64,000 nucleotides of DNA. Origin: Escherichia phage EcSzw_1. Below the pieces are notes generated by a model, which did no database searches, was not told where the DNA came from, and was given only the letters and a program-made list of their open reading frames with translations. Below, one piece after another: positions 50,997-51,675 of this stretch. The position numbers were made by a program, and so were the translations under genes. Each line of letters begins with the position of its first letter. Position 1 is the stretch's first letter. The DNA lies in sequence record MH791413.1; one strand, given 5' to 3'.

Positions 50997-51079
50997 TGGC
51001 ATGGGACGGAGGATTCGAACCCCTTTGAGTAAGTTTTGGAGGCTTACGCTCATGCCTTAGAGTCTTAACATCGTCCCAT
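50997..51079 (-). tRNA. tRNA-Trp (CCA), atypical extended D region
   Basis: Acceptor ATGGGAC/GTCCCAT; anticodon loop CTCCAAA as in E. coli tRNA-Trp; T-loop TTCGAAT; D region about 7 nt longer than canonical. Confidence 0.5.
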
Positions 51080-51221
51080 ACTACAATTCGAAGCTTACCG
51101 TATTATCACAACACTGTAAAGCCCCTTCTCAGATTTTTTACATGTTCTGGAAAACATGAGATACAGACCACCTCCATACAGGAAGACCCGCTAAGGTCGT
51201 CTAAGTAATCTGCTAACTATT

Positions 51222-51289
51222 TGGCAGTCAAGGTAGGAGTCGAACCTACTTACTATCGAAGGTAGCTAACCTTCAGTAACTTTCCGACT
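51222..51289 (-). ncRNA. Degenerate tRNA-like element lacking a D arm
   Basis: 68 nt; canonical T arm GTAGG-TTCGACT-CCTAC and CCA; hairpin GAAGG-TTAGCTA-CCTTC; no D arm. Confidence 0.35.
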
Positions 51290-51348
51290 TTCGTACACCT
51301 GCTAACATGTATTCAGATGGCTTACTAGTGTTGTCTTGACCATTAAAC

Positions 51349-51425
51349 TGGCACACCCTACAGGACTCGAACCTGTAACTCAGTGCTTAGAAGGCACTTG
51401 CTCTATCCAATTGAACTAAGGGTGC
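51349..51425 (-). tRNA. tRNA-Arg (TCT)
   Basis: D arm GTTC-AATTGGATA-GAGC; anticodon AGTGC-CTTCTAA-GCACT; T arm ACAGG-TTCGAGT-CCTGT. Confidence 0.75.
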
Positions 51426-51675
51426 ATTCTTATCTTTAAAGGCTCTCTTAGAAAACCCTTAAAGATGCCCACATTATTAATCATACCGTGGGCGAGTACG
51501 CCAAATTCTTTGATGAGGGGTTGGAAGACCTCACTGGTGTTTAGCCTATTAAGCTACTGCCAGAAAAACATTATCGTTTGCATTTATTTTAGTTTGCAAA
51601 AATAGACGCTACGCTAACGAAAACTAAGGTTACTATAAAGTGGTCACATCTGAATGTCAACAACTTTATCAAATT

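Follow-up and report, generated by a model that had tools for sequence, protein, structure and literature searches.

A candidate tRNA-shaped, non-decoding RNA gene in the tRNA cluster of Escherichia phage EcSzw_1 and its relatives

Escherichia phage EcSzw_1 (sequence record MH791413.1) carries a cluster of transfer RNA (tRNA) genes within the 64,000-nucleotide (nt) stretch analyzed here, which we call the window and whose positions are used throughout. An initial annotation, made from the letters alone, had flagged positions 51222-51289 (minus-strand sequence AGUCGGAAAGUUACUGAAGGUUAGCUACCUUCGAUAGUAAGUAGGUUCGACUCCUACCUUGACUGCCA) as a 68-nt tRNA-like element with a T arm, an acceptor stem and an encoded CCA but no D arm. 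We found that the flagged segment is probably the 3′ part of a ~120-nt RNA gene (51341..51222, minus strand; hereafter the unit) built from four arms, namely a closing helix, hairpin S, hairpin V and a T arm. We read the unit as a conserved, tRNA-shaped, non-decoding RNA gene, with an estimated probability of roughly 0.6. The observation behind the initial annotation was partly confirmed, and its interpretation is partly supported.

Results

Fold of the unit

The T arm first noticed in the flagged segment (GUAGG-UUCGACU-CCUAC) is real and lies flush with a 7-nt 3′ strand followed by G-CCA, an arrangement far beyond chance. We searched for a composite motif in which a T arm (loop TTCRANY) precedes 7 nt, a single base and CCA, and in which a fully paired 7-nt 5′ partner strand lies at most 150 nt upstream. 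The window holds 17 instances, against 0.005 per window expected from first-order Markov sequences; every one is on the minus strand within the tRNA cluster, where 16 are tRNAs and the other is the unit. The arm also contains what we take to be the complete set of canonical residues (G53, U54, U55, C56, R57, A58 and C61 in tRNA numbering). The sole fully paired (7/7) partner found for the 3′ strand CUUGACU was GGUCAAG, which places the true 5′ strand 52 nt further upstream than the 68-nt boundaries and gives an extent of approximately 51222-51341. RNAalifold applied to 12 variants closed the structure with this helix, which was also present in the minimum free energy (MFE) and centroid folds of the single sequence. 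The 7-base-pair (bp) closing helix sits flush on the 5-bp T arm, forming a 12-bp acceptor/T-arm module that is followed by G-CCA.

The initial annotation instead described a self-contained 68-nt tRNA mimic, in which AGUCGGA and CUUGACU form the acceptor stem and the long hairpin stands in for the anticodon arm. The T arm, CCA and hairpin of this model are real, and AGUCGGA is invariant and can pair with CUUGACU at six of seven positions (four Watson-Crick pairs and two G-U pairs, with one A.C mismatch). However, an acceptor stem taken from the first 7 nt of the 68-mer, as in a D-arm-lacking tRNA, was not confirmed: the model with the GGUCAAG helix was ~6 kcal/mol better than that with the AGUCGGA helix in 12 of 12 variants, and ensemble probabilities were 0.92-0.98 for the former helix versus 0.00 for the latter. 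The 68-nt model also gives no account of the upstream 52 nt, where the 5′ strand and a linker are invariant and a hairpin covaries, and its hairpin loop has 5 nt rather than 7. Folded alone, the 68-mer was no more stable than shuffled sequences (z = -0.72), and its MFE fold differed from the one proposed. We consider a self-contained 68-nt mimic very unlikely. A D arm drawn by hand within the 68-mer (G10-C25 with a GG loop) was likewise rejected, as it left no anticodon arm and conflicted with the covarying hairpin V.

In the 120-nt fold, hairpin S holds the position of the D arm; the suggestion that 8 nt replace the D arm is not supported. The stem of hairpin S is CAUCUG/CAGGUG in the window; in the Moogle group it is UUAUCUU/AGAGAUAA. 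The long hairpin described earlier is present as hairpin V (UUACU-GAAGGU-uagcu-ACCUUC-gau-AGUAA, with 11 bp, a 3-nt bulge and a 5-nt loop), but its reading as an anticodon arm does not hold, as it lacks a 7-nt loop: the supposed anticodon loop UUAGCUA is really a 5-nt loop flanked by first and last bases that covary from U-A to G-C. When the four-arm model was laid on the alignment, 98% of cells fell in standard pairs, compared to 34-52% when the pairing partners were slid by 1-3 columns. The question whether a cloverleaf might exist in another register can be answered in part, since a four-arm, cloverleaf-like fold was found that is not the standard tRNA cloverleaf.

Both hairpin loops carry palindromes. 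The loop of hairpin V contains AGCU, and the palindrome ACAUGU in the loop of hairpin S is replaced in the Moogle group by ACGCGU, which is palindromic still after a double change. These palindromes could reflect kissing-loop dimerization, a DNA-level protein site or a single dinucleotide event.

Conservation across isolates

The alignment comprised 17 isolates representing 12 distinct variants of the block, to which one metagenomic contig added an identical copy. In flanking intergenic DNA, ~34% of columns were variable (151 of 440), compared to 5 of 64 columns in the closing strands, linkers and T arm (Fisher p = 4.4e-6). The hairpins varied at a rate not different from that of intergenic DNA (p = 0.56; 12 of 28 columns in hairpin S and 10 of 29 in hairpin V), yet their pairing was kept. 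Hairpin S shows a compensatory change from C-G to U-A that splits the variants 6 to 6, and 91.7% of its cells remain paired. In hairpin V, the U-A to G-C double change occurs in 5 variants, and KPS64 has lost one A from the 5′ strand and one U from the 3′ strand, removing a whole base pair; in a structure-aware alignment, pairing of the inner stem is 100%. Remaining stem changes yield G-U pairs, and a U-to-C change in KPS64 breaks one junction pair. In the closing helix, the 3′-strand base opposite U3 changes from A to G in 3 phages, which represent 2 distinct variants, and pairing is preserved as U.G; the discriminator G is replaced by A in CHB7. The canonical T-arm residues and CCA are intact in 18 of 18 copies. 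G-U pairs account for 28 of 335 paired cells and would become A.C mismatches on the opposite strand, so we assign the structure to the tRNA strand.

This pattern of variation fits a constrained, structured RNA and is unlike that of a decaying pseudogene. The initial annotation had left open a choice between a pseudogene and a functional mimic; the conservation pattern is consistent with the latter and does not suit the former. A functionless tRNA 3′ half fused to unrelated sequence, whether a decaying pseudogene or a recombination scar, would be in keeping with the silence of the tRNA finders, with the absence of the unit from most relatives and its precise excision in Silverhawkium, and with a region that is often rearranged, as homing endonuclease genes and another orphan tRNA-like fragment show. 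Such a relic predicts a neutral rate and disrupted stems, but the segments outside the hairpins show fourfold lower variability than the intergenic DNA around them, the hairpins stay paired through double substitutions and a paired one-base-pair deletion, and the canonical T-arm residues and CCA survive in every copy. We regard a relic of this kind as quite unlikely.

Several points weigh against our reading of the unit as a structured RNA gene. The 120-nt fold is only modestly more stable than shuffled sequences (z = -1.58). Only ~3 independent compensatory events were found among 12 closely related variants with 93% mean column identity, and the closing helix and T arm are invariant, so covariation says nothing for or against either. 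The unit is dispensable, as it is absent from Felixounavirus and from the Mooglevirus Silverhawkium, and its expression is predicted from genomic context. In addition, nearest-neighbor energies in the Suspvirus variants favor an alternative helix between AGUCGGA and the T loop over the T stem by ~2 kcal/mol.

This alternative arises because linker 2 is complementary to the T loop (AGUCGGA versus UUCGACU, 7 nt). The T stem had a probability of 0.14-0.25 in Suspvirus variants and 0.70-0.99 in Mooglevirus variants, while the same calculation on three genuine tRNAs of the cluster gave 0.01-0.34, indicating that a low T-stem probability cannot exclude a T arm. The sole variation in this stretch is a G-to-A change in the T loop of Moogle and Mijalis, which keeps the purine at position 57 and breaks the alternative helix. 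We favor the T arm over the AGUCGGA:T-loop helix in our sequence comparison because the T arm has the full canonical signature and stacks flush on a 7-bp helix that is followed by N-CCA. A switch between the two, or an elbow-type contact using the invariant GG of linker 2, is possible, and this GG could dock on the T loop in the manner of a D loop.

Classification

We then asked which known RNA classes recognize the unit. As the initial annotation had supposed, it is not a standard cloverleaf: ARAGORN made no tRNA call at the unit, and a 501-nt search gave no match at E<=10 to the Rfam tRNA (RF00005) or tRNA-Sec models. Transfer-messenger RNA (tmRNA) was likewise not detected by ARAGORN or by Rfam at E<=10, and the unit contains no tag-peptide open reading frame (ORF). 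No Rfam match to YrlA or other Y-RNA-type RNAs was found at E<=10, and no Ro-binding stem was found in the unit. We found no Rfam family for the unit or for the T4 RNAs rnaC and rnaD that are compared with it below, and a literature search found no described class of phage tRNA-like decoys and no mention of this locus.

The acceptor/T-arm module and CCA would also suit a genuine decoding tRNA of exotic structure, such as a class II tRNA with a giant variable arm, and other non-canonical tRNAs of the cluster (Trp-like, Tyr-like and Glu) escape ARAGORN too. But neither hairpin of the unit has a 7-nt loop carrying U33 and R37 (5 nt in V, 12-13 nt in S), the Rfam tRNA and tRNA-Sec models are silent, and the other genes of the cluster already cover 20 of 20 amino acids. 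A decoding role is extremely improbable.

A protein-coding reading was rejected because no ORF longer than 27 amino acids (aa) overlaps the unit; the 123-nt coding sequence that the pEC-M719 record places on the opposite strand is an artifact of gene calling. We also tried and rejected an origin of the unit as a remnant of the neighboring tRNA-Arg, since the aligned sequences differ by a clean indel of 127/128 nt following the CCA, with no duplication of tRNA-Arg. The match found by BLAST between the 3′ half of the unit and a Felixounavirus tRNA-Arg is explained by shared downstream flank and a generic T arm, and the 'tRNA-Arg' annotation over the match in Mijalis is merely a 2-nt overlap with the neighboring real tRNA-Arg. 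Comparison with specific parental tRNAs was uninformative (28 of 42 positions for the best, Met1, versus 17-26 for the others).

Distribution, gain and loss

A search with the element and short flanks found the unit in 24 records, belonging to Suspvirus (EcSzw-2, SUSP1, SUSP2, mistaenkt and CHB7), Mooglevirus (Moogle, Mijalis, Michonne, Mordin, Sf17, Sf19, KPS64, HP1, KMM2 and others) and one record without a genus. None of the 17 carrier records examined has an RNA annotation at the unit, and no tRNA was called there in GenBank records whose annotation used tRNAscan-SE or ARAGORN. True copies scored 137-154 bits with a covariance model of the unit and everything else no more than 23 bits, the VpaE1 cluster included; with filters off, the model found no moved or diverged copy in that cluster. 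Scans of IMG/VR returned only copies of four known carrier genomes plus chance matches, and a metagenome scan yielded one Mooglevirus-like contig with an HP1-type copy. No match was found in GTDB species genomes or in 5,426 Escherichia coli genomes, indicating that the unit is not host-derived.

On this genomic distribution the unit is accessory, occurring in Suspvirus and most Mooglevirus genomes. In VpaE1 (Felixounavirus) and Silverhawkium (Mooglevirus), the CCA of tRNA-Arg(TCT) is followed directly by AATAGTTAGCAGATTAC, whereas in the window a 127-nt block (51222-51348), itself ending in TGCCA, lies between the tRNA-Arg CCA and AATAGTTAGCAGATTAC. The Silverhawkium flanks are of KMM2 type upstream and downstream, and the missing segment is precisely the 128 nt that separate two TGCCAA repeats. 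This precise absence indicates that the block was gained or lost exactly at the two CCA ends.

These genomes also bear on whether the unit acts in cis or at the DNA level, either as a 3′ trailer that aids processing or stability of the tRNA precursor or as a site for protein binding or recombination. The palindromes ACTAGT, ACATGT/ACGCGT and AGCT are candidate sites, the S-loop palindrome survives a double change, the linkers are conserved although drawn unpaired, and the unit is predicted to be co-transcribed with tRNA-Arg. Yet the same tRNA-Arg and downstream genes work without the unit in Felixounavirus and Silverhawkium, the strand-specific G-U pairs point to RNA rather than DNA, and an encoded N-CCA after a 12-bp acceptor/T-arm module is the signature of a released tRNA-like end. 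We judge a cis-acting or DNA-level element to be unlikely, and prefer an RNA gene.

Genomic setting and neighboring elements

The window is 100% identical to Escherichia phage EcSzw-2 across the 901 nt compared and 80-95% identical to 278 records of Ounavirinae (FelixO1-like phages). The unit lies inside a minus-strand tRNA cluster at 47.3-53.1 kb with ~27 tRNA genes, in which ARAGORN called 24 tRNAs and Rfam added a tRNA-Glu, a 64-nt tRNA-like element, a weak Tyr-like tRNA and a Trp-like tRNA. A genuine tRNA-Arg(TCT) lies directly upstream (Table 1), and the spacer between its CCA and the first base of the unit has a length typical of the spacing between neighboring ARAGORN genes in the cluster. 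The hexamers of the predicted promoter upstream of this tRNA are also present in VpaE1 and Silverhawkium, and we found no minus-strand terminator-like site between the promoter and the unit. On these sequence features, a transcript containing the unit is probably driven by this promoter.

Table 1. Features of the unit and its upstream neighbors (window positions; variable columns are those of the 12-variant alignment).
Feature	Position	Strand	Evidence or variation
Predicted sigma-70-type promoter, TTGACA-17-TATAGT, 11/12 matches, upstream of tRNA-Arg(TCT)	51632..51660	-	
tRNA-Arg(TCT), 3′ end ...GUGCCA	51349..51425	-	ARAGORN; Rfam tRNA 61.8 bits
Spacer GUUUAAU, 7 nt, from tRNA-Arg CCA to first base of unit	51342..51348	-	Sequence
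Closing helix (acceptor-like), 5′ strand GGUCAAG	51335..51341	-	7/7 pairing with CUUGACU; 0/7 columns variable
Closing helix, pairing	51335-51341 with 51226-51232	-	RNAalifold, MFE, centroid
Linker 1, 14 nt, ACAACACUAGUAAG, drawn single-stranded	51321..51334	-	1/14 columns variable
Hairpin S, D-arm position, 12-13-nt loop with 6-nt palindrome	51295..51320	-	Compensatory change
Linker 2, 15 nt, ACGAAAGUCGGAAAG, with AGUCGGA (51283-51289) and invariant GG	51280..51294	-	1/15 columns variable
Hairpin V, anticodon/variable position, abuts T arm	51250..51279	-	Double change and base-pair deletion
T arm, GUAGG-UUCGACU-CCUAC	51233..51249	-	1/17 columns variable
Closing helix, 3′ strand CUUGACU, with discriminator G and encoded CCA	51222..51232	-	2/11 columns variable

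The upstream tRNA-Arg(TCT) occurs as two quite different alleles (GCACCCU... and GCUCCGU...) that are shuffled relative to the adjacent unit and flank haplotypes, indicating mosaic recombination inside the cluster. Homing endonuclease genes (HNH and PD-(D/E)XK) lie between tRNA genes in several relatives. Downstream of the unit, a conserved intergenic stretch (51095-51177, minus strand) carries a GGAGG with short ORFs (20 and 23 aa) after it and, in addition, the hairpin CAUGUU-uuccag-AACAUG.

Several other tRNA genes of the cluster are non-canonical or were missed by tRNA finders. An unannotated tRNA-Trp(CCA)-like gene (51000-51082, minus strand) is missed by ARAGORN and detected in Rfam only by tRNA-Sec, at 26 bits. 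The gene is conserved in both VpaE1 and Silverhawkium, its anticodon stem shows compensatory changes (GUAAG/CUUAC, AACGG/CCGUU and GACGG/CCGUU), and its acceptor/T geometry seems to be 8/4 or 9/4, as in the unusual tRNAs of PMC5389517. A tRNA-Tyr(GTA)-like gene with a long variable arm (52500-52580, minus strand; 22.8 bits) is also missed by ARAGORN, and tRNA-Glu(TTC) (52973-53044, minus strand) was found by Rfam only. With the Trp-like, Tyr-like and Glu genes counted, the cluster covers all 20 amino acids.

A second orphan tRNA-like element (52182-52245, minus strand, in the region 52150-52300; Rfam tRNA 30.6 bits) has a T arm (GAAGG-UUCGAUU-CCUUC), an anticodon-like hairpin, a truncated D region and a poor acceptor. 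It is ~91% conserved in 238 Ounavirinae records and carries an RNA annotation in none of the 8 records listed. The motif AGAAGACC-N5-CAGCAA occurs in 4 copies between tRNA genes (52243-52261, 52330-52348, 52785-52803 and 52943-52961, all minus strand), compared to 0.04 expected, and GGTCT(G) was present 40-70 nt downstream of the two copies examined. Two copies gave weak, spurious Rfam matches to 'Dicty_Class_I_RNA'. These copies could be phage-specific promoters, processing signals or long stem-loops.

Discussion

RNase P recognizes the acceptor/T-arm module of its substrates, and tRNAs with an encoded CCA are trimmed to that CCA. In the mechanism that we propose, the unit would be transcribed from the promoter upstream of tRNA-Arg(TCT) within a polycistronic tRNA precursor, RNase P would cut before G51341, 7 nt after the tRNA-Arg CCA, via the acceptor/T-arm module, and the 3′ end would be trimmed to the encoded CCA, after which the unit would accumulate as a stable small RNA. 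Co-transcription, cleavage before G51341, a mature CCA and accumulation are all inferred from established tRNA biology. More speculatively, the unit might mimic a tRNA for some tRNA-recognizing host or phage factor, outside decoding. In evolution, the unit would have been gained or lost precisely between the TGCCA(A) repeats of two CCA ends.

Phage tRNA clusters are mainly read as codon-usage or anti-defense devices, and annotation pipelines list nothing beyond the calls of tRNA finders. The unit appears to be an RNA gene of tRNA origin that is conserved and structured, bears clear signs of selection and carries no pipeline annotation. It is small, accessory and present or absent in otherwise near-identical phages, making it a tractable system in which to study the roles of tRNA mimics. 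Should it prove to be only a processing by-product, it would still correct the annotation, as do the missed Trp, Tyr and Glu tRNAs nearby.

The unit shares with canonical tRNAs a 7-bp acceptor-like helix and a 5-bp T arm, the T-arm residues, a discriminator followed by CCA, and tRNA-like spacing in a tRNA operon. It differs in its size of 120 nt and in lacking a tRNA-type D arm and a 7-nt anticodon loop. The same likenesses and differences hold for the D-arm-lacking tRNAs of mitochondrial type. The tRNA-like domain of tmRNA and YrlA keep the acceptor/T-arm module and a GG-containing D-loop analogue, with the anticodon arm replaced. The unit appears to keep the module and a GG and to replace the anticodon arm likewise, but its topology differs from that of tmRNA, where a far larger body separates the D analogue from the T arm.

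The closest architectural parallel that we compared is with phage T4, whose rnaC and rnaD encode stable RNAs from the tRNA region with roles that are unknown (PMC3014915, PMC9697503, PMC12685909); accumulation of RNA C was confirmed by Northern blot (PMC9697503). In T4, tRNA-Arg is followed after 1 nt by rnaD (species 2 RNA, 119 nt) and then by rnaC (species 1 RNA, 139 nt), while the unit measures 120 nt, and in both phages non-decoding RNA genes lie downstream of tRNA-Arg(UCU) in a tRNA cluster. We found rnaC in 740 T4-like records, and in divergent relatives it lies between tRNA genes with tRNA-like spacing. A consensus built from 4 divergent sequences, using GenBank matches (a scan of IMG/VR gave only 5 loci), folds into a four-arm cloverleaf with 16 covarying pairs, in which a 7-bp closing helix is flush with a covarying canonical T arm and the second of two long hairpins abuts the T arm. 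This topology, with a closing helix flush with the T arm and two hairpins between, is that of the unit.

The two RNAs also differ. As annotated, rnaC ends ...CGUUUCGUA and has no CCA; its closing helix has internal U.U mismatches, its arms are longer, and it lacks long conserved single-stranded linkers. Accumulation is shown for T4 rnaC and is a prediction for the unit. Homology of the unit to rnaC or rnaD was rejected by reciprocal covariance-model searches: the model of the unit found no match at E<=10 in the T4 rnaC/rnaD region, and the rnaC model scored the unit at 16.6 bits, within the range of ordinary tRNAs (15-18 bits). Because the topology is the same and no homology is detectable, we liken the unit to T4 species 1 RNA in how it may work and do not place it in the rnaC family.

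We tentatively raise the possibility, which we hold to be doubtful, that the unit and T4 RNA C are independent examples of an unrecognized class of four-arm, tRNA-shaped, non-decoding RNAs that lie directly after tRNA-Arg(UCU) in the tRNA operons of virulent phages and are matured by RNase P as tRNA mimics. Such RNAs could act as a decoy or inhibitor of a host tRNA-targeting defense nuclease or tRNA-binding enzyme, or as a switch using the alternative AGUCGGA:T-loop pairing. T4 species 1 RNA, which is alike in architecture and position, has had no known function since the 1970s. If the unit and RNA C do belong to one such class, naturally occurring phage pairs of the KMM2 (unit present) and Silverhawkium (unit absent) types would allow a direct genetic approach to what the T4 species 1 and 2 RNAs do, a question now 50 years old.

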